From Candidatus Micrarchaeota archaeon (GTDB taxonomy: Archaea; B1Sed10-29; JAJRYS01): 35,449 nt of DNA. Made by a program: the position numbers and the translations under genes. The stretch lies in assembly GCA_964643685.1 (NCBI GenBank), contig CAZXTN010000005.1:27260-62708 (forward strand). The letters are read 5' to 3'. The notes beneath the pieces were generated by a model, which saw only the letters and a program-made list of their open reading frames with translations, did no database searches and was not told the origin of the DNA. Shown here piece after piece: positions 10,526 to 34,481 of this stretch (its first letter is position 1; every line of letters begins with the position of its first letter).

Positions 10526-11828
10526 AAGAAGACAAACCTCTTTCTCTATGATGATGAACTGAATTTTTTTCGCTGATTTTTTTCAGCTTCAATTCCTCAG
10601 CTTCCTTAATCACTTTCTTAGGGCTCTTAACACCCAAAAACTTCAACTCGCTTTCATCAAAACCAAACTGAGCAGTCAGCTTAACAGCTTCGATTTTGTC
10701 TTTCATTAATTCTTTAAACATCGGCAAGTAATAACTCACAGCCCTTTTTGAAGACAAATGAACCTGCTCACCTACTTTCAAACCAAATGACTTGAAAAAA
10801 TTCCTAGTTGACTTAGTGGAAGACAGCTTCTTAATAAGAGAAGGATAAGCATACTTAGTCCAAGAAAGATACTTCTCTTTTTTAGCAAGCGCAACCCCTG
10901 CACTCATTAAAACACTCACATACCTCCACAAACCATAATCCATGCGCTTATAAACTCTTCCTAAAAAAACATCTGCTCTTGAAATCCTCTCAAATGCATT
11001 AAACAAATCCTCTTCCTTCTTATACTCATTTGGAATATTCTCCTCAATCCATTTTAAAATAAAATCAGGCTGTTCATTCACATCAATAATTGACTTCCTC
11101 GCCTCGTCAAAATCCATTGACTTAAAAATAGTCTGCACAGAATCATAAACACTGGCTTCCCTGTCCCTGCTTCCAATCAAACTCAAATCTGCTTCTGAAA
11201 AACCAGGCACAGCAGTAAGCAACTGCAAGTCATTAATAGCTGAACGCACATCACCTGCATTCAAAGCAATTTTCTTAGCCAATTCATAATCCAACTTAAT
11301 GCCTTCCCTTGCAGCTATCTTCTGAAGCAGCTTAGCAACAGTTGCATAATGCACTTTCTTGAAGTGAATTTTTTCGCAGTAATTCCTGATTGAAGAAATC
11401 TTCTGGCTCCACACATCATTAGCAGTCAAAACAATAGGGCAAGGATTTTCTTTAAGTATCTTAACAACAGCTCCTGCCCCTCCCCTGTCAACCCTGTACA
11501 AACCATCAATTTCATCAAACAAAACAAGCCTCATCTTTCCAGAAAAAGTTCTTGAAACACTAGCAAGCCCAGCTATCCTTTCAATTTTCTTAGCATCCCT
11601 GTCATCGCTTGCATTCAACTCAAGCAATTCAAAATCATATTCATTAACCAAAACATTCACAATAGCTGTTTTTCCAACACCAGTCGCGCCATACAGCAAC
11701 AAAGGCTTGCCTTTTTTTCCATCAAGCCAATTTTCAGCCCACTTTTTAATTTGTTCAACTGCAGTTGAATTGCCAATAAAATCCCCATACAATTCAGGCG
11801 CATACTTTTCAGTCCACAACTTACTCAT
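10518..11828 (-). CDS. rfcL: Replication factor C large subunit
   Basis: WTEKYAP, GATGVGKT, ELNASD.R, DEID, GDVRSAINDL, WIEEN and SRAD.FL.R. Confidence 0.95.
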   Translation of the reverse strand: MSKLWTEKYAPELYGDFIGNSTAVEQIKKWAENWLDGKKGKPLLLYGATGVGKTAIVNVLVNEYDFELLELNASDDRDAKKIERIAGLASVSRTFSGKMRLVLFDEIDGLYRVDRGGAGAVVKILKENPCPIVLTANDVWSQKISSIRNYCEKIHFKKVHYATVAKLLQKIAAREGIKLDYELAKKIALNAGDVRSAINDLQLLTAVPGFSEADLSLIGSRDREASVYDSVQTIFKSMDFDEARKSIIDVNEQPDFILKWIEENIPNEYKKEEDLFNAFERISRADVFLGRVYKRMDYGLWRYVSVLMSAGVALAKKEKYLSWTKYAYPSLIKKLSSTKSTRNFFKSFGLKVGEQVHLSSKRAVSYYLPMFKELMKDKIEAVKLTAQFGFDESELKFLGVKSPKKVIKEAEELKLKKISEKNSVHHHRERGLSSFI

Positions 11829-11912
11829 AAGTAATACTTAGAAAATCAAAGAATAAAAAAACAGAGGGAAAAAACAGACTCAACAAACTAAGCAACATTA
11901 ACCTTAAAAAAT

Positions 11913-12515
11913 CTAAACACAACCTGAATAACTTGAACAATCAGAATCTTCACAATCAACACTCCCATCATTGTCATTGTCTCTTTCATCAGTACAATTT
12001 TCCATACACTCCTCAGAAGAACCATAACATTCTTTTAATTCAAAGGAAACAATTTCACAAACGCTTTCATCATAACCACTGCAGTCGCTTAAACAAGGCG
12101 CCTGCGTGCCAGATTCATAATCACCTAAAACACTACAATCAACGCTTCCGCCATCGCAAACTTCGCCCTCTTCCAATTCCCCATTGCCACATCCTGAAAC
12201 TTTACGCTTGTAAATGCTTTCAGAATCCCCCTGTTTGCATAATTCAACAGCTGAAAAACCAGTTCCTTCAAGAATATCCTTGCCATTCACAGTGCATGCT
12301 TTTTCACAGAACAAGCAGGGGTCATTAGGAGCAAGCAAACGGCTTCCTTGACATTGATTAGCTGCTTTCTTGCATTCAGCAAAATTAGAGTCAGTGACAG
12401 ACTTGCCACTTGAATTAGCTACGAAATAAACAACAATACCAGCAACAGCAAGAATAACTGCAACAACCATCAAATACTCTAAAGAACCCTGCGCTCTGCT
12501 TTTCTTAAAAAACAT
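11913..12515 (-). CDS. Type IV pilin-like protein (class III signal) with Cys-rich extracellular repeats, 200 aa
   Basis: KKSRA/QGSLEYL followed by a hydrophobic helix, CGNG...GEVCDG (myxobacterial Cys-rich repeat-like) and C.D..DNDNDG.VDC.D.DC. Confidence 0.85.
   Translation of the reverse strand: MFFKKSRAQGSLEYLMVVAVILAVAGIVVYFVANSSGKSVTDSNFAECKKAANQCQGSRLLAPNDPCLFCEKACTVNGKDILEGTGFSAVELCKQGDSESIYKRKVSGCGNGELEEGEVCDGGSVDCSVLGDYESGTQAPCLSDCSGYDESVCEIVSFELKECYGSSEECMENCTDERDNDNDGSVDCEDSDCSSYSGCV
12073..12146. repeat. 74-bp exact direct repeat, copy 1
   Basis: Identical base for base to 13795-13868; encodes SVDCSVLGDYESGTQAPCLSDCSG(Y) on the minus strand. Confidence 0.95.
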
Positions 12516-12569
12516 CAATTAAAACAAAAAGAAAAACAGGTATATAAACAATTCAGCAGAAGATGAAAA

Positions 12570-14243
12570 TTAGCTGATTGGAGAATAAGGCCTGAACTTG
12601 GCAAACTTTAGCCCATGAGTAACATCATCATAATAAGAAAGATAAAGATAACCATCTGAACCTAATTTTAAACTAGCCCAACCATAAGCTCTTGAAGAGG
12701 GATCAATTGTCTTAGTCAACCACTCTGTTCCTTTTTTATACAAATAAGTTATATGATCCCCCTCTCCTCTATAAGCAATTGAAGGTTCATCATTATCTGT
12801 TTTATCAATTACATAATCAACAGACCAAGCACCATCTGCAAGGTATTCAGGAGAATTCCATGAATTACCCTTATAAACACGTCTTTTCAAATCGCCAGCA
12901 CAAGAATAAACAATAGAAGGCTGATCATTTGAATCCAATTGAACTCTTGAATTATACCCACATGAAGAATCAATACCATCCAAAGTTGTGATAGACCATG
13001 AACCCCCAGAAGGTTTGTAAGCATAACGCAAAGAGCAATAATGATTATGATAAGTTCCAGGCCCAAATGGCTGGCTTAAATTAGCATAACTAGCATAAAG
13101 GTTATTGCTTTTATCAACTGCCAATCTAATATAATGCCCTACATTGTAACTAACATCATCAACTTTTTCAGAATACCATGAAGAGCCAATTTTCCAGAAA
13201 TGAAATAAATGATATGCATTAATTGTATCCCCACTATCAGGGTCAGTATAAGTTCCGTCTTGCAATCCAATAACAAAATGAGGGTTATTATTAGAATCAA
13301 AAACAAGTGAAGGGTCATAACCAGCTGCATCCTTAACAATCTCCAAATTCCAGCCTGAAGCATCTTTCCAAGCATGCCTTATATACGCCTTAATAGAAGT
13401 AGTATAGTACATTCCAGTATAATCTTCAGTTAAGTCAGCAGAATAGAAAACAACATGAGGAAAACCTTGCTTGTCAAAAGCAAAATAAAAAGTGCCTACA
13501 ACTTCAGAAGAGTTATCATAAACAACTTCGGAAACCCAACTATCACCTGACTTATAAGCATATCTTAAAATCCGATAACCTGTTGACTCATTCTCTCTAT
13601 AAACAATATAAGGTTTATTATCTTTTAAATCAAGAACATTTAAACCCCCAACCAGGGCAGAAGAGGAAGAAGGTTCATCAACTACCTCAATCTGCAAGCA
13701 ATTTGAATCAGCATAATCAGCCACTCCATTGCCATCATTATCCACGCCATCATAGCAATTAACTTCACCTAAAGGAGTGCATACAAGAGTATTGTAACCA
13801 CTGCAGTCGCTTAAACAAGGCGCCTGCGTGCCAGATTCATAATCACCTAAAACACTACAATCAACGCTGTCACTGTCACAAACCTCATCACCCATTACAA
13901 TCCCATCACCACACTTCTGCTCAATCTTATAAATAGATTCAGGTTCACCTTGCTTGCATAAACCACAAGCTCCATTAACATCACAACCCTCAGCAAGAGT
14001 CATAATGTCCTTTCCATTAACAACACAAGCAGATTCACAATCAATACAAGGATCATCAGGCGAAAAAATCAAATTGGTTTTACACTGCCCAGCTGCCTTC
14101 TTGCATTCAGCAAAATTAGCACTTGAAATGCTTTTGCCACTGCTACCTACAACAAAATAAACAACAATAGCTGAAATCATAAGCACAGCTGCTACAATAA
14201 TCAAATACTCAAGACTCCCTTGAGCTTTAGTTTCTTTAAACAT
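12570..14243 (-). CDS. Type IV pilin-like adhesin: class III signal, Cys-rich stalk, C-terminal beta-propeller-like domain, 557 aa
   Basis: KETKA/QGSLEYL followed by a hydrophobic helix, Cys-rich repeats, then recurring SL..DS.G.PHI.Y...L.YA.....W..E.VD blades. ATG 14243 is preferred over the ORF-track start at 14291. Confidence 0.85.
   Translation of the reverse strand: MFKETKAQGSLEYLIIVAAVLMISAIVVYFVVGSSGKSISSANFAECKKAAGQCKTNLIFSPDDPCIDCESACVVNGKDIMTLAEGCDVNGACGLCKQGEPESIYKIEQKCGDGIVMGDEVCDSDSVDCSVLGDYESGTQAPCLSDCSGYNTLVCTPLGEVNCYDGVDNDGNGVADYADSNCLQIEVVDEPSSSSALVGGLNVLDLKDNKPYIVYRENESTGYRILRYAYKSGDSWVSEVVYDNSSEVVGTFYFAFDKQGFPHVVFYSADLTEDYTGMYYTTSIKAYIRHAWKDASGWNLEIVKDAAGYDPSLVFDSNNNPHFVIGLQDGTYTDPDSGDTINAYHLFHFWKIGSSWYSEKVDDVSYNVGHYIRLAVDKSNNLYASYANLSQPFGPGTYHNHYCSLRYAYKPSGGSWSITTLDGIDSSCGYNSRVQLDSNDQPSIVYSCAGDLKRRVYKGNSWNSPEYLADGAWSVDYVIDKTDNDEPSIAYRGEGDHITYLYKKGTEWLTKTIDPSSRAYGWASLKLGSDGYLYLSYYDDVTHGLKFAKFRPYSPIS
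13795..13868. repeat. 74-bp exact direct repeat, copy 2
   Basis: Identical to 12073-12146; the offset of 1722 bp is a multiple of 3. Confidence 0.95.
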
Positions 14244-14297
14244 CAAATAAAACAAAAGAAAAACCAGTATATAAAAGTTAGCTGAAAACAAAAATAA

Positions 14298-14798
14298 TTA
14301 AACAAAAGGAACACAAACCCCGTCAGTGCAAACACCAGGAGAGCCATTCAAATCACATGGAAGCCCTTCACACTCCTGCTCTTCACAGTCAATCAAGCCA
14401 TCGCCGTCATCATCAACTCCATTATCACAATGAGATTCCATTAAAACACATTCTGCCATTTCATTACATGTTCCTTTCTTGCCATCAGACAAAACACATT
14501 CCCCCCATACATTCACATTATTAACGCACTTGCCTTCATCGCATAAGTTGAAAGTGCATTGATTGCCGTCATCGCAGTCAGAATCAACTCTGCATTCAAC
14601 ATGAACACCTGAACTATTATTAACAATAATATTTGAACTGATTCCACCAGAAACAGTTGGCAAGGAAGAATAATCAGACAAGACTACTTCTTTTCCGGAA
14701 TTCAAAAAAACAAAAGCAACTGAAATCAAAATAACAAAAACTGCAACAAGCTTGAAATGAGACTTAATCAAACCAACTGCTTTATTCAATCCAATCAT
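14298..14798 (-). CDS. Membrane-anchored Cys-rich surface protein
   Basis: N-terminal TM helix, C..DSDCDDGNQCT...C...C repeat and CDNGVDDDGDGLIDC...C motif. Confidence 0.8.
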   Translation of the reverse strand: MIGLNKAVGLIKSHFKLVAVFVILISVAFVFLNSGKEVVLSDYSSLPTVSGGISSNIIVNNSSGVHVECRVDSDCDDGNQCTFNLCDEGKCVNNVNVWGECVLSDGKKGTCNEMAECVLMESHCDNGVDDDGDGLIDCEEQECEGLPCDLNGSPGVCTDGVCVPFV

Positions 14799-14861
14799 CA
14801 ACTTAAATAAAGCAAAAAAAAGAATATAAACCTTGCACTACAAAAAGGAAAAAGGGTAAAA

Positions 14862-14924
14862 ATGAAATCAATCGCATACGCTCAAACTTTTCATTTCACC
14901 TATAAGGAGTATGAAGTAAAATGA
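14862..14924 (+). CDS. Putative leader peptide uORF1 (MKSIAYAQTFHFTYKEYEVK)
   Basis: ATG 14862 to TGA 14922-14924; the stop overlaps the next ATG (ATGA). Translation is unproven. Confidence 0.3.
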   Translation: MKSIAYAQTFHFTYKEYEVK

Positions 14925-14986
14925 AAATCAATCACTCACCTTGCTCGCTCAAACTTTTCATTTCACCTATGAGGAGTATGAAGTAA
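14921..14986 (+). CDS. Putative leader peptide uORF2 (MKINHSPCSLKLFISPMRSMK)
   Basis: ATG 14921 has nearly the same AGGAG context as ychF; TAA 14984-14986 ends one base before the ychF ATG. Translation is unproven. Confidence 0.3.
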   Translation: MKINHSPCSLKLFISPMRSMK

Positions 14987-14987
14987 A

Positions 14988-16187
14988 ATGAAAATTGGAT
15001 TAGTTGGAAAACCGTCAGCAGGAAAAAGCACGTTCTTCAAAGCAGCCACGTTAATAGACATAGACATAGCAGCATACCCATTCACAACCATAAAACCAAA
15101 CAATGGCATGAGTTACATAAGAGTCGAATGCGTTGACAAGGAATTTGGAGTCCAATGCAACCCAAGGCAAGGATACTGCGAAAAAGGCACGAGATACGTG
15201 CCAGTGGAACTCGTTGACGTCGCAGGACTAGTTCCAGGCGCACATGAAGGAAAAGGACTCGGCAACCAATTCCTAAACGACTTGAACCAAGCAAATGTCT
15301 TAATACACGTAGTAGACGCGTCAGGCTCAGCAAACGAAAAAGGAGAAATAACTAAGCCAGGAACATACGACCCCTCAAACGACATAAAATTCCTAGAACA
15401 CGAGTTGAACATGTGGTACTTAGGGGTGCTGAAAAAAGGAATTGAAAAATTCGCAAGGAAAATAAAACAAGATTCAAAAATAGAAAACTTAGTCGCAGAG
15501 CAGTTATCAGCTTTCAACGTAAAACCAGAAATGGTTGAAGAAGCTCTTAAAAAAGCAAATGCATTAGGCACAAATCCAAAAGAATGGAGTGAAGAACAAT
15601 TAAAACAAATAGCAATAGATCTGAGGAAAAAAACAAAGCCAATACTAATTGCCTGCAATAAAATTGACTTGCCGCATGCCCATGAAAACTATGAAAAACT
15701 GAAAAAAGAATTTCCTGATTATTACTTCATGCCTTGTTCAGCTGCTTCTGAACTTGCCTTAAGAGAAGCAGCTAAAAAAGGAGTCATAAGATATCACCCG
15801 GGAGATTCTGATTTTGAGATACTGAAAAAAGATGAGCTTGATGAAAACCAGTTGAAAGGACTTGAGTTCATAAGAAAAAACGTGCTTGAGAAATACGGCT
15901 CCACTGGAATACAAAACATTCTTGACGCAGCTGTGTTTGATTTTTTAAAATACATTGCGGTATTTCCAGGTGGAGTGAACAAGCTAGAGGATAGCCAAGG
16001 GAGGGTGTTGCCTGACGTGTTCTTAATGCCTCCTGGCTCAACTGCACTTGACTTCGCAAACAAGATACACACTGACTTAGGAAAGCACTTTCTTTACGCC
16101 ATTGACGTGCGGAAAAAAATGAAAATAAGAAGAGATTATGAACTAAAAAACAGGGACGTTATAGAGATAGTGTCAGCAGCAAAATAA
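14988..16187 (+). CDS. ychF: Obg-family translation-associated NTPase (archaeal YchF/Ygr210 type) with TGS domain
   Basis: GKPSAGKST, YPFTTI.PN, DVAGLVPGA..G.GLGNQFL, NKID and a C-terminal TGS domain (IHTDL...F). Confidence 0.93.
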   Translation: MKIGLVGKPSAGKSTFFKAATLIDIDIAAYPFTTIKPNNGMSYIRVECVDKEFGVQCNPRQGYCEKGTRYVPVELVDVAGLVPGAHEGKGLGNQFLNDLNQANVLIHVVDASGSANEKGEITKPGTYDPSNDIKFLEHELNMWYLGVLKKGIEKFARKIKQDSKIENLVAEQLSAFNVKPEMVEEALKKANALGTNPKEWSEEQLKQIAIDLRKKTKPILIACNKIDLPHAHENYEKLKKEFPDYYFMPCSAASELALREAAKKGVIRYHPGDSDFEILKKDELDENQLKGLEFIRKNVLEKYGSTGIQNILDAAVFDFLKYIAVFPGGVNKLEDSQGRVLPDVFLMPPGSTALDFANKIHTDLGKHFLYAIDVRKKMKIRRDYELKNRDVIEIVSAAK

Positions 16188-24311: not shown

Positions 24312-24971
24312 ATGATTCCAATCGGCTGTTCTTCTATTGACAAGCTTCTCGGAGGAGGACTTCTTGAAGGAGTAATTACACAGGTTTACGGAAGCCCTGG
24401 AAGCGGAAAAACAAACATTGCGCTTTACACTTCTTATACTGCTTCTAAAATGAATAAAAAAATTGCTTTCATTGACACTGAAAACAGCTTTCATCATGAA
24501 AGAGTTAATCAGATTTTCATGGAAAATGAATTGCTGAATAACATTGACTTAATTAATGTTAAGAATTTCCAGGAGCAGGAGGAAGCAATTGAAGAAGTTG
24601 TTAATGAAAATTACGACTTGGTGATAATTGATTCAATGACTTCGCTTTACAGGGTTGAAAGAACAGATGATAACTACTATGACGTGAACAGGGTGCTTGG
24701 AAAACAAGCTTTGAAGTTGTTGAATTACGCGCGTGAAGAAAATATTCCTGTTTTAATCACTAACCAAGTTTATACTAATACTGACACTGGATTAATTGAA
24801 CCTGTTGGTGGAAGCATTTTGAAGTATTACTCGAAAGTGATTCTTGAAGTTATGAAAACAGAGGAAGGAAGAAAAGTTGTGTTGAAAAAGCATTTGAGCA
24901 GGAAAGACGGTGAAGAAGCAGAGTTTAAAATAGTTGAAAATGGTATAATAAGTCATGGGTTATATTCATAA
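24312..24971 (+). CDS. radB: DNA repair and recombination protein RadB
   Basis: RecA core without N-domain: IDKLLGGG, GSPGSGKT, FIDTE, IIDS, ITNQV, PVGG..LKY.SK and a basic LKKH patch. Confidence 0.92.
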   Translation: MIPIGCSSIDKLLGGGLLEGVITQVYGSPGSGKTNIALYTSYTASKMNKKIAFIDTENSFHHERVNQIFMENELLNNIDLINVKNFQEQEEAIEEVVNENYDLVIIDSMTSLYRVERTDDNYYDVNRVLGKQALKLLNYAREENIPVLITNQVYTNTDTGLIEPVGGSILKYYSKVILEVMKTEEGRKVVLKKHLSRKDGEEAEFKIVENGIISHGLYS

Positions 24972-28880: not shown

Positions 28881-30170
28881 ATGCTGAAAAGGAGAGGAGT
28901 AATCAGCATAAAGAAAATGAAAGATGAGTATCCTGAGATAAAAAAAGAAATCAAAGAAGAATTTGCTAAGAAAAAAATTAAAAAAGACAGTCAGGCTCTT
29001 GTTCACGTGCTTTCAAAGATATGCGAGCCAATGGAATTAACACCTCTCATGCTTGATTACAACATTGAAGATATTCAAATAATGGGGTATGATAGGAACG
29101 TTGTTGTTTCTCACTCGCAATATGGTGTTTGCACTACAAACTTGATTTTCAGAAAAGAAAAGAAGAGGATAATGGCTATCCTTGACAGGATTCTTTTAGG
29201 AACCAACAGGCAGATAAGCCACTTGAATCCGATAATAGACGCGTCAATGACTGACGGTTCAAGAATAAACGCCACTTTACATTCAATCTCACCTGAAGGG
29301 CCTACAATAACTATAAGAAAATTCCTGCCAAAGCCAATAACAATAATAGATTTTGTAAGAAGAAAGCACATAACTCCTGAAGTAGCTGCCTTGCTGTGGC
29401 TTTACATGGATGGGTTTCAGACAATGCCTCTTAATTTCATAGTAGGGGGAGGAGTAGGAAGCGGAAAAACAACACTAGTAAATGCTTTAACTGCATTCAT
29501 TCCACCTGAAGAAGTGATGCTGACAATAGAAGACACTAAAGAATTAATTCCATTAAATGAAAACGTGATAAGCTTGCTGTCAAAACCACCTGTAATAGAA
29601 GGCACAGGGGGGATAACACAAGATTTCCTGCTTAAAGCAAGCTTGAGAAAAAATCCAGACAGGATAATAATAGGGGAAATGAGAGGAGAAGAAGCTGCTT
29701 CTCTTTTCTCAGCAATGAACATTGGAAGAAAATGCTTGACAACAATACACGCTAACTCAGCTGAAGAAGCAATAGACAGGCTGACAAACCCACCTATGAA
29801 CGTGCCTAAGGAGCTAACAAGCTTGATTGACGTTATAATAATGACAGCAAGGATAAACAAAGGAGAGAAGATAATTAGAAGAATTTTCCAAATAAGTGAA
29901 GTGATAAAAAAAGAAGGCTCAGATGAAGTTGAGATAAACCTTATTTATGAAAGAGACCCTGCAACAGATTCATTGAAAAAAGTAAATGAACTGAAAAAAG
30001 TAGAGGAGATTGCAAAAAATTCAGGCATGAGCGTTGAAGGAGTTTTGAAAGACCTTGAAAAAAGAAAAAAGATAATTGAGAAGCTTGCAGAGTCAAACGC
30101 TGACTTGATGAAAATAAAAGCAGTTATAGACAAGTATCACAGAGAAACAATCAAAAGCAGCTTAATGTAA
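28881..30170 (+). CDS. Type IV pilus / secretion ATPase (CpaF/TadA/VirB11 family)
   Basis: PIIDA...DGSRINA, ITIRKF, Walker A GGVGSGKTT, Asp box TIEDTKEL, R.NPDRIIIGEMRG.EA and TIHANSA. Confidence 0.92.
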   Translation: MLKRRGVISIKKMKDEYPEIKKEIKEEFAKKKIKKDSQALVHVLSKICEPMELTPLMLDYNIEDIQIMGYDRNVVVSHSQYGVCTTNLIFRKEKKRIMAILDRILLGTNRQISHLNPIIDASMTDGSRINATLHSISPEGPTITIRKFLPKPITIIDFVRRKHITPEVAALLWLYMDGFQTMPLNFIVGGGVGSGKTTLVNALTAFIPPEEVMLTIEDTKELIPLNENVISLLSKPPVIEGTGGITQDFLLKASLRKNPDRIIIGEMRGEEAASLFSAMNIGRKCLTTIHANSAEEAIDRLTNPPMNVPKELTSLIDVIIMTARINKGEKIIRRIFQISEVIKKEGSDEVEINLIYERDPATDSLKKVNELKKVEEIAKNSGMSVEGVLKDLEKRKKIIEKLAESNADLMKIKAVIDKYHRETIKSSLM

Positions 30171-32883: not shown

Positions 32884-34407
32884 TCAATTAGCCATTCCGC
32901 TTATTGTAGGATGGACACAGTTCCAGTTTTTAATATTACAGACAACAGGAGAGGAATAAAATGAATTGCTTGTCGTAACATTCCATACTTGCTGATGAGT
33001 TGAAACATTCAAAGCATATAAAACCCCGTCATATGAACCAAAGTAAACAATTCCATTAACAACAACTGGCGAAGGATTGACATCCCCTCCTGTATGATAA
33101 GTCCACACTTCAGCACCAGTAGTTAAATTCAATACATGCAGGTAATCATCATCGCTTCCAACATACAACAAGCCTCCGCTATAAAAAGCAGATGAGGAAA
33201 TGGCATCTCCGAAAGAAGATGAAGTCCAAATCACCCTGTTAGCATCATCGCTGCTGACATTCAAAGCATAAGTCTGATTAGTATTGTTTCCATCTTCTGA
33301 CACAATCAAATAATCTCCAACAAGTAAAGGAGAAGATAAGACGTAACTATTCAATGACTTCTTCCATTTCACACTGCAATTGCTAGTGTAAAAAGCATAA
33401 GTATAATTGTAAGGAGAACCAACGCCAATGTAAGCAACATCATCTTTTACAAGAGCAGATGAAACATCATTACCTCCATCTTGAGCATAACTGCATACTT
33501 CAGAGCCATTATTGTTAATATCCAGCTTGTAAAAAGAACCGTTTCTAGTTTGTTCATAAGTACCTTCACCTACATACAAGTAGTCACCAACAATAACAGG
33601 GGAAGAGGAATAAGAATTAGCAGTGCTTAATTGAGGCTGTGAAATTGAATGATTCCATAACTGATTGCCATCAGATACATTCAAAGCATAGACATAGCCA
33701 CCCATGGCAAAATAAACAGCATCTCCTTTGATAAAAGGCGAGGAGCCAAGATAATAAATCCCTGCATTGTAAGGAGTAAACGTCCATAAAATGCTCCCAT
33801 TAGTTGCATTCAAACAGTATAACTTCCCAGCATCATTTCCAATAAATAACCTTCCATTGCTTATTCCAGGAGAAGATGTGATAGTATTAATGGATGAAAG
33901 AAGAGTAGACCAGTATTGAGTGCCATTTTCATAATAAGCGTAAACATTCCCATAATTCTTAGCAAAGAACACTACATAAACTGGCTTGATGTAATCTTCA
34001 TCAAGCTTGAAAGTAGTTTTAGGATACCCATTGCCTAAAACAAGATACTGCCCAGCAGACAATTCATCAACCAGCAAATGCAAGTCATAAAAACCAGCAT
34101 CATTAGGCTCTAAACTGGATTCATTTAATCCAAACCAGCCAACTAAAACCCCTGAACTGTTGTAAACCATGACACTCTTTTCAGCAGCAGCTCTACCTAA
34201 ATTCCTTAAAAAAGCAGCAGTGCCGTTAAAATCGCTTACAACAATATAAGGATTGTCATAATCAACACTTACAACGCTGTCCTTCTGAGTATAATCGCCA
34301 ACCCAGTACCACACGCCAATAGCTGCAATCACAGAAATTGCAATCAGCAAAACCACGCCAACAACAGGAGACAAGCCTTTCATGAACAACTTCACTTTTT
34401 TAAGCAT
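32884..34407 (-). CDS. Archaeal pilin/archaellin-type N-terminus fused to a PQQ/BamB-like beta-propeller
   Basis: MKG/LSPVVGVVLLIAISVIAAIGVW followed by repeated SSP....G.VYFGS.DG.LYALN..G...W blades; start 34407 or 34383. Confidence 0.88.
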   Translation of the reverse strand: MLKKVKLFMKGLSPVVGVVLLIAISVIAAIGVWYWVGDYTQKDSVVSVDYDNPYIVVSDFNGTAAFLRNLGRAAAEKSVMVYNSSGVLVGWFGLNESSLEPNDAGFYDLHLLVDELSAGQYLVLGNGYPKTTFKLDEDYIKPVYVVFFAKNYGNVYAYYENGTQYWSTLLSSINTITSSPGISNGRLFIGNDAGKLYCLNATNGSILWTFTPYNAGIYYLGSSPFIKGDAVYFAMGGYVYALNVSDGNQLWNHSISQPQLSTANSYSSSPVIVGDYLYVGEGTYEQTRNGSFYKLDINNNGSEVCSYAQDGGNDVSSALVKDDVAYIGVGSPYNYTYAFYTSNCSVKWKKSLNSYVLSSPLLVGDYLIVSEDGNNTNQTYALNVSSDDANRVIWTSSSFGDAISSSAFYSGGLLYVGSDDDYLHVLNLTTGAEVWTYHTGGDVNPSPVVVNGIVYFGSYDGVLYALNVSTHQQVWNVTTSNSFYSSPVVCNIKNWNCVHPTISGMAN

Positions 34408-34481
34408 TATAATTAATAAATGAAACAAATAAGTTATTTAAACACTGCGTTCATAAATGTTATAATCAGAGTTGGTTTTTA

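Follow-up and report, generated by a model that had tools for sequence, protein, structure and literature searches.

A Candidatus Micrarchaeota archaeon carries, in a 35,449-nucleotide (nt) stretch of its genome (hereafter the window), two tandem genes for type IV pilin-like proteins, A (11913-12518) and B (12570-14243, both on the minus strand), that share 74 consecutive identical nucleotides inside sequences which are otherwise strongly diverged. How did so short a patch come to be identical, and does it serve a purpose? An earlier note on this DNA had proposed that it is a recombination or gene-conversion handle, which shuffles receptor-binding tips onto a constant pilin stalk. The window corresponds to positions 27260-62708 of contig C5 in a genome of 695,104 bp (12 contigs, 36% G+C), rated 91.75% complete and designated G000 here; its pilin-like paralogues are labelled A to F, and other genomes of the same order G001 to G010. 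As detailed below, the identity most likely arose by gene conversion over short tracts between paralogous genes for modular pilins, a process that recurs in their most constrained protein segments.

The two copies of the exact tract are located at 12073-12146 in A (codons 125-149, encoding the peptide SVDCSVLGDYESGTQAPCLSDCSGY) and at 13795-13868 in B (codons 126-150), on the minus strand in both cases. In agreement with the earlier note, they are spaced by 1722 nt (574 codons) and both are in codon phase 0; the exact match extends no further at either end. The next longest match between the two genes is, as also stated there, 22 nt long (12367-12388 and 14098-14119, minus strand) and falls in the NFAECKKAA stretch of the stalk. 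Over the 121 aligned codons that precede the tract, A and B are 61.2% identical at the nucleotide level, and 36 of the 69 codons specifying identical residues are themselves identical. Inside the tract this is true of 24 out of 25 such codons, and over the 32 codons aligned past it the nucleotide identity is 49.0%, with 5 of 13 identical-residue codons being the same. The Nei-Gojobori proportion of synonymous differences (pS) between A and B is 0.71 before the tract, 0.07 inside it and 0.87 after it, and in a 25-codon sliding window it falls to 0.03 precisely at the tract. None of 10000 codon-column shuffles reached a run of 74 nt (median longest run 15, maximum 37). Thus, the sliding-window comparison of synonymous divergence that had been suggested as a check gives low values at the tract only and favours a local event. 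Since synonymous divergence collapses there alone and the flanks are saturated, the identity is best described as a local conversion. By their sequences, A and B are old tandem paralogues with saturated synonymous sites outside the tract.

The tract does not lie at the junction of stalk and tip, where it had originally been placed. It constitutes the second half of a Cys-rich linker, the CGNG module, that is common to the two proteins and extends over 12054-12191 in A (approximately residues 110-155) and 13776-13913 in B (approximately residues 111-156, minus strand for both). Nor do the proteins part shortly after the repeat: an acidic motif that follows the module is still shared, and A and B remain homologous until ~35 codons past the tract. 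Between the two genes, the first half of the module (CG[ND]G...EVCD) and the acidic motif have kept a clear homology in spite of strong divergence.

All paralogues of this stalk family in G000 were compared with each other. The family has six members, A and B plus four more genes (C, D, E and F), and exact matches of at least 17 nt are present in three of the 15 possible pairs, namely A-B (74 and 22 nt), A-C (65 nt) and C-D (59 and 18 nt). The three tracts occupy three different gene regions. The A-C tract (12232-12296, minus strand; part of CEKACTVNGKDILEGTGFSAVELCKQG) is identical over 65 nt to positions 238-302 of contig C5, in paralogue C some 39 kb away, and belongs to the CEKACTVNGKDI... 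part of the stalk, whereas the C-D tract is found at the 5' end of the genes. Neither the A-C run nor the 54-nt run that C and D share in the coding alignment was reached in any of 10000 shuffles. For the control pairs B-C, A-D and B-D the longest runs were 12, 10 and 8 nt, respectively, and these were reached by 3425, 6923 and 9795 of 10000 shuffles. Gene A is consequently a mosaic: its codons 71-95 match C (pS 0.06) and its codons 125-149 match B (pS 0.03).

Across the genome there are 39 exact repeats of at least 35 nt once runs of N and a duplicated contig are removed, many of them being 55-nt overlaps of contig ends. Among the remaining repeats of at least 59 nt, five join paralogous surface or pilin genes (272, 213, 74, 65 and 59 nt), and three of these five are in the A-F family. 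The 213-nt stretch (C2:55822-56034 and C2:56767-56979) recurs in a tandem pair of genes for a different type of pilin (MKKGISPVVAVVLL...); it takes in sequence upstream of the genes along with their first ~60 codons and represents another homogenised patch in pilin genes. The 272-nt stretch (C1:229-500 and C2:86318-86589) is found near contig ends, in two otherwise different secreted surface proteins (...DTSPPSVSSKSPSGNNEP...).

The tract can also be followed in contigs assembled independently from reads. We used Logan contigs (k=31) of the runs X1, possibly the source of the assembly, and X2, which come from different studies, together with those of X3 and X4. In both X1 and X2, positions 13795-13865 form a separate unitig of 71 nt, the depth of which is 35.6 compared to 15-18 in the flanks (X1) and 258.8 compared to 85-134 (X2). 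The flanking unitigs stop exactly 30 nt (k-1) into the repeat. A shared unitig of double depth and flanks ending in this manner are what two true copies would give, and the tract is therefore not an assembly artefact; the possibility of homogenisation by the assembler, which the earlier note had listed as a potential refutation, is thereby made very unlikely.

The same contigs refine the ends of two tracts. In X1 and X2 position 13866 of the B copy is an A, which reduces the stretch shared with gene A to 71 nt (13795-13865), and position 12287 of gene A is a C, which reduces the match to paralogue C from 65 to 55 nt (12232-12286). At both positions the assembly carries the base of the paralogue, and both are the first mismatch past the tract, which suggests consensus errors at repeat edges. 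Variants in X3 at 12176, 12180 and 12192, two of the three being B's base, were considered as signs of a longer tract and set aside as too weak, the depth being ~4.6. An excess of depth in X2 (134 in the contig covering 12257-13824 versus ~85 in the long flanks) was likewise set aside, given that it is not bounded by the repeats and has no counterpart in X1; contig depth cannot rank parts of one gene. Short contigs cover 12257-14007 in X2, though not in X1, at ~1.5 times the depth of the long flanks, with adapter-like loose ends at 13924 and 14007.

The distribution of such tracts was followed in the order-level set of 18 genomes (G000 included). The stalk family is present in all 17 of the other genomes searched. 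Paralogues were compared for eight relatives, that is, for nine genomes together with G000; in G002, G005, G006 and G008 the comparison covered, for most genes, the first 0.6-1 kb, so that it would not detect tracts lying beyond this. Tracts of at least 45 nt between different paralogues were identified in five of the nine genomes examined. In G001 an exact tract of 111 nt is situated in the CGNG module, the very module of the A-B tract, and in G004 a tract of 92 nt spans the signal peptide and helix; neither run was reached in 10000 shuffles. G010 has tracts of 59 and 45 nt in the stalk region that matches the A-C tract, and none of 3000 shuffles reached the run. A 334-nt match in G008 encompasses nearly the whole of a small tandem gene and may represent a recent duplication rather than conversion. 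The longest matches in G005 and G006 are 39 and 27 nt, the gene starts compared in G002 contain intragenic repeats only, and no exact tract of at least 20 nt joins paralogues in G003. The picture is thus one of three hot regions, each in two genomes, rather than of one handle.

Among these relatives, G001, which belongs to a different genus, is the most informative. Among the 18 genomes, close copies of the CGNG module are confined to G000 and G001, with distant copies in G003 and at C6:43596-43739 of G000. The two G001 genes in question encode a protein of 386 amino acids (aa) and one of 673 aa with a BNR_4-like propeller. Their stalks align only in the signal-peptide region, and they share an island of 147 nt, 141 of them identical and 111 in one exact run, which coincides exactly with the CGNG module. 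When the 25 tract codons of G000 gene B are set against those of gene 1 of G001, 22 of 25 residues are identical but only 7 of the corresponding 22 codons and 49 of 75 nucleotides are. Expressed for all comparisons, codons for identical residues in the tract are the same in 24 of 25 (G000) and 21 of 24 (G001) cases within a genome and in 7 of 22, 4 of 21 and 8 of 22 cases between genera. Codon likeness that is higher within genomes than between genera is the pattern of concerted evolution, and it leaves no room for a nucleotide element that both genera would have conserved.

Metagenomic sequences allowed the G001 organism to be compared between samples. Out of 53 metagenome loci, only L050-L053 are close (55-58%), and these belong to the G001 organism; they were analysed together with L055, the other 48 being left aside. 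Two contig sets of this organism are identical over 2485 and 3549 nt around gene 1 save for four substitutions, all of which fall within 6 nt inside the module, and one of the two variants is the sequence of gene 2. This cluster looks like a conversion patch segregating between populations. L055 was tried as the donor of the AACGCT variant and discarded, as it reads otherwise at that site.

What is observed is the tract, its statistics, its presence in reads, the further tracts and the codon pattern within genomes and between genera; how the tract came about, which gene was copied into which and whether the phenotype is affected are matters of inference. In the gene conversion that we favour, RadA-type strand exchange, or template switching in repair or replication, would copy part of the CGNG module from one gene to the other, and would have done so recently enough for no substitution to have since accumulated in the tract. 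The patches in the A-C and C-D pairs and in the pairs of the related genomes would have been left by the same process. The tract would accordingly be incidental to the concerted evolution of the best-conserved segments, and not a site built for recombination. A RadA gene is present (C4:16872-17588, 301 bits), and the window contains a RadB-like gene (24312-24971).

Several points weigh against this explanation. The flanks of the tract are 35-50% diverged in nucleotides, which should strongly inhibit homologous recombination and leaves the start of the exchange unexplained. On neither side of the G001 island (141 of 147 nt) can the DNA be aligned, and any conversion there would have to start and stop within ~150 nt. 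In each of the two genera in which the CGNG module occurs, it is this module that is homogenised, which hints at a site preference, although high conservation of its amino acids could account for that. Furthermore, no conversion event has been observed directly in G000, and the disagreement between the assembly and the read-derived contigs at 13866 and 12287 makes the tract ends uncertain by 3-10 nt.

The alternative that fares best, unlikely as we judge it to be, is a dedicated handle for tip swapping or phase variation, in which the CGNG module would be kept identical in order to exchange, delete or amplify receptor-binding tips. The reading frame is kept across the two copies, and crossing over there would leave the hybrid gene intact. 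In the second genus, too, the module is an identical island, placed between genes with unalignable stalks and different tips. In addition, stalks and tips are paired differently in the two genomes, the propeller being carried by B- and C-type stalks in G000 and by a D-type stalk in G001, and it is by comparison of these sequences that domain shuffling near the CGNG module over evolutionary time is recognised. A broader version, according to which the module would be a portable recombination joint of DPANN modular pilins, with tips exchanged, deleted or duplicated without a recombinase, appears to us similarly improbable.

What argues against a handle is, first, the number and arrangement of the copies. 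The 74-mer occurs twice in the 695-kb genome, in direct orientation; further copies joined to other C-terminal domains, for which the earlier note had proposed to look, did not turn up in the genome search, and the 71-nt core has no exact match in the metagenome contig collection, from which records of the genome itself may be left out. As the copies are direct and in tandem, a crossover would delete instead of swapping. The predicted hybrid is indeed in frame, but the outcome would be limited to B's stalk fused to A's tail, with the propeller and A's stalk lost, which amounts to loss and not to exchange. The 71-74-nt direct repeat may still support such a 1722-bp in-frame deletion, rarely and as a side effect. 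Second, the genes have tracts of the same kind at two further positions. Third, searches of the 91.75%-complete genome for tyrosine (PF00589) and serine (PF00239) recombinases gave no match at E<=0.01, with controls positive in 14 of 14 and 12 of 14 genomes, respectively, so that the reported lack of a recombinase in the window extends to the whole genome searched. Finally, the arrangement of the genes does not differ between the two runs that show it for G000, nor between the two contig sets of the G001 organism. Alternative joints are absent from the k=31 contigs of X1-X4, which is uninformative with regard to deletions or circles, given that a junction across a 71-nt repeat contains no novel 31-mer. 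Of the original proposal, therefore, the recombinational origin of the identity is upheld by the collapse of pS, while its role as a dedicated device for shuffling tips is not, in view of the two copies, the tracts elsewhere and the missing recombinase.

Known systems for pilin variation underline these differences. In shufflons, such as that of R64 with Rci and PilV, alternative C-terminal pilin ends are produced by a tyrosine recombinase at short inverted repeats. The likeness would consist in alternative C-terminal ends of one pilin brought about by recombination at short repeats; the G000 repeats differ in being direct and present in two copies only, and the genome search found no such recombinase. 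The pilE/pilS system of Neisseria relies on one expressed locus, many promoterless silent cassettes and a dedicated initiating structure. Mosaic pilins resulting from conversion between pilin gene copies are common to both cases, but A and B are each equipped with start codon, signal peptide and TATA-like box, the tract has two copies, and no variation was seen. A diversity-generating retroelement was also considered and rejected: the 91.75%-complete genome has no match to reverse transcriptase (PF00078; control positive), the repeat copies are identical and the differences in the flanks involve all bases.

A closer analogy for conversion itself is provided by tufA and tufB of Salmonella, for which PMC5485169 describes interlocus gene conversion and 12 differences in 1185 nt (on interlocus conversion and concerted evolution of prokaryotic paralogues, see also PMC6053082 and PMC8223754). 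As in the tuf genes, short contiguous non-reciprocal transfers would link paralogues on the same chromosome, and likeness within a genome exceeds that across genomes. In contrast, A and B are 35-50% diverged outside the patches, the tracts measure 55-111 nt, the products are surface proteins, and the case concerns an uncultured archaeon. Word searches restricted to the open-access literature did not bring up any account of conversion between pilin paralogues in DPANN archaea.

A recent domain transfer, in which the module or part of it would have been newly copied by illegitimate or microhomology-mediated recombination, is in our estimation quite unlikely. It would agree with the non-homologous sequence on both sides of the G001 island, with the closest B-like pilin of G004, which is without the module, and with the occurrence of the module at the end of an unrelated non-pilin open reading frame (ORF) in L055. 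The first half of the module and the acidic motif are, however, homologous yet diverged in A and B, which implies that the module pre-existed and that its second half was overwritten. The ORF in question (L055:3-1496, in a contig set of the G001 organism) is 498 aa long, open at the contig start and, in the part seen, devoid of a class III signal; the CGNG module is thus not confined to pilins. Hairpin-insert elements were also weighed as the origin of the short duplicates and discarded, given that the tracts occupy homologous coding positions and are in frame.

Selection on the nucleic acid itself, for instance on an embedded RNA or a protein-binding DNA site, is very improbable as the cause of the identity. 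The antisense (plus-strand) 74-mer folds somewhat better than shuffled sequences (z -2.23, with 4 of 200 shuffles as good), but the sense RNA does not (z +0.85), no Rfam match was obtained at E<=1 in 11800-14900, and between genera the nucleotides vary (49 of 75 nt and 7 of 22 codons the same) while the peptide is kept. The weakest proposal, that the assembler homogenised two merely similar stretches, is hardly credible: the assembly does depart from the read contigs at 13866 and 12287, lengthening an identity tract each time, but two runs from different studies contain one 71-nt unitig at about twofold depth, with flanks that end k-1 bases into it.

Gene A encodes 201 aa from a probable ATG at 12515 and consists of a signal peptide, a pilin module, the CGNG module, the acidic motif and a stop codon. 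Gene B (557 aa) has a stalk, CGNG module and acidic motif as in A, followed by a 372-aa beta-propeller (12573-13688, minus strand; residues 186-557). The earlier description of the pair as tandem class III signal genes with diverged N-terminal halves holds at 61.2% nucleotide identity, with the qualification that, in matches to the class III signal peptide family of Pfam (PF04021, cut-off 23.7 bits), B scores above the cut-off (31.5 bits) and A below it (20.8 bits). The signal in both reads K/R-A-Q-G-S-L-E-Y-L, with Glu as the fifth residue past the predicted A/Q bond. In an alignment of 26 family members, the pilin module is Cys-containing, ~105 aa long and ends near residue 103 of A (...CK.G....IY); Q9, E13, Y14, C55, C74 and C93 are invariant. 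In the AlphaFold2 (AF2) model of A, residues 11-61 form a helix, which is followed as far as residue 100 by a small head rich in disulfides (pLDDT >90 for 11-100), the remainder being poorly predicted. Foldseek searches of the PDB with this model gave no match at E<=0.001, and apart from the signal peptide Pfam and NCBIfam contain no family that matches the A/B stalk. By their signal peptides, A and B are type IV pilin-like proteins, which may assemble into a filament.

In both proteins the pilin module is followed by the ~50-aa CGNG...C module and then by the acidic double-disulfide motif. The latter corresponds to single copies of NF033662 at residues 173-200 of A (26.4 bits) and 160-185 of B, both below the cut-off of 41 bits. 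The cysteine-rich acidic repeat TIGR02232 scores 17.1 bits (cut-off 20.8) on the first 15 residues of B's CGNG module and has no match in scans of the whole A and B proteins. Residues 186-557 of B are modelled by AF2 as a beta-propeller (pLDDT 89, pTM 0.88) with blades of ~46 aa, in accordance with the roughly 370-aa propeller predicted before. The propeller is lectin/sialidase-like: in Foldseek searches of the PDB it matches best the propeller lectins PLL/PHL of Photorhabdus (TM 0.65-0.74) and next to them sialidases. It has 5244 homologues at E<=0.001 in the protein library, and seven of the eight that were scanned match Pfam BNR_4.

A TATA-like box, TTTATATA on the minus strand, precedes each gene, at 12541-12548 (26-33 nt upstream of the ATG) for A and at 14268-14275 (25-32 nt upstream) for B, and the upstream regions 12510-12539 (A) and 14238-14267 (B) are 87% alike. 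Each gene therefore has its own promoter-like signal, with a function that is putative. Upstream of B, on the same strand, a gene at 14298-14801 encodes a Cys-rich protein of 167 aa. It is anchored in the membrane by its N-terminus, lacks a class III motif and shares the acidic double-disulfide motif of A and B (NF033662 at aa 122-146, with 31.1 bits again below the cut-off); it may or may not be connected with the pair.

The remaining members of the family differ in what is attached to the stalk. Gene C lies at the start of contig C5 and continues on C6, the end of which overlaps the C5 start by 55 nt. Besides its stalk it encodes CGNG-type modules and PKD domains, three of each, and a propeller. 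In D, which is in tandem with C, the extra module is a MopE-like motif and in E it consists of LVIVD repeats, whereas F is a stalk-only pilin of 112 aa belonging to the A/B stalk family. F is part of an operon at C4:60500-65500 (L118) with the order T2SSE, T2SSF, T2SSF, F and Peptidase_A24 with an archaeal PepC domain; its products probably assemble the pilins of the A-F family. In the whole of G000, two matches to Peptidase_A24 are above the cut-off and there are 10 matches to T2SSF, two of them in a stretch duplicated between contigs C1 and C8. A second ATPase of the T2SSE family (28881-30170) and a PQQ/BamB-like beta-propeller protein (32884-34428) are encoded 15-20 kb from the A/B pair.

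This architecture resembles that of bacterial modular type IV pilins as surveyed, for IPR012902, by Raynaud et al. 2021 (PMC8179133), in that a functional module is grafted onto a small class III pilin module and several architectures are built on one pilin module. A and B are distinguished by being archaeal and by a Cys-rich stalk with no Pfam family beyond the signal peptide, and their part in adhesion is putative. A 2026 survey of archaeal type 4 filaments (PMC13705601) describes pilins with extra C-terminal domains and a wide distribution of such systems except in Asgard and DPANN archaea. It is plausible that proteins of the A/B family are host-attachment proteins of DPANN cells, which would make them adhesins.

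The surroundings of A and B within the window are archaeal housekeeping genes, including those for the alpha and beta subunits of PheRS, RFC, Cdc48, a topoisomerase and the RadB-like protein. A direct repeat of 50 nt (14879-14928 and 14946-14995, 98% identical) is located just upstream of the gene for an Obg-like GTPase, and a related stretch of 43 nt joins C2:4959 to a different place on C5, C5:14452, in inverted orientation. Some features of the assembly were also recorded. Contig C8 is an exact duplicate of 25,448 nt of C1 (C1:75901-101348). Four scaffold gaps of 100 N (C1:199936, C2:27969, C4:40577 and C5:27160-27259) each have 55-nt duplicates at both sides, and the last of them stops immediately before the first base of the window. 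Positions 1-61 of the window are a Lys-rich coding unit that recurs at C5:26970 and C5:27105, a tandem repeat split by this gap.

Gene conversion between paralogues is a textbook mechanism, and the process described here is ordinary in kind. What is added is a read-supported example from an archaeon with a 0.7-Mb genome, in which one gene is a mosaic of two paralogues, and a linker module of ~50 aa that has been homogenised independently in two genera. It also brings to light an archaeal family of modular pilins, the stalk of which is linked to a compact pilus operon and is fused to propellers, PKD domains, LVIVD repeats and Cys-rich tips. If it is true that the tract drives the loss or exchange of tips, this would be a simple route to surface variation for organisms without site-specific recombinases, and if the module is a recombination joint, an episymbiont could vary the binding of its pili without a recombinase.

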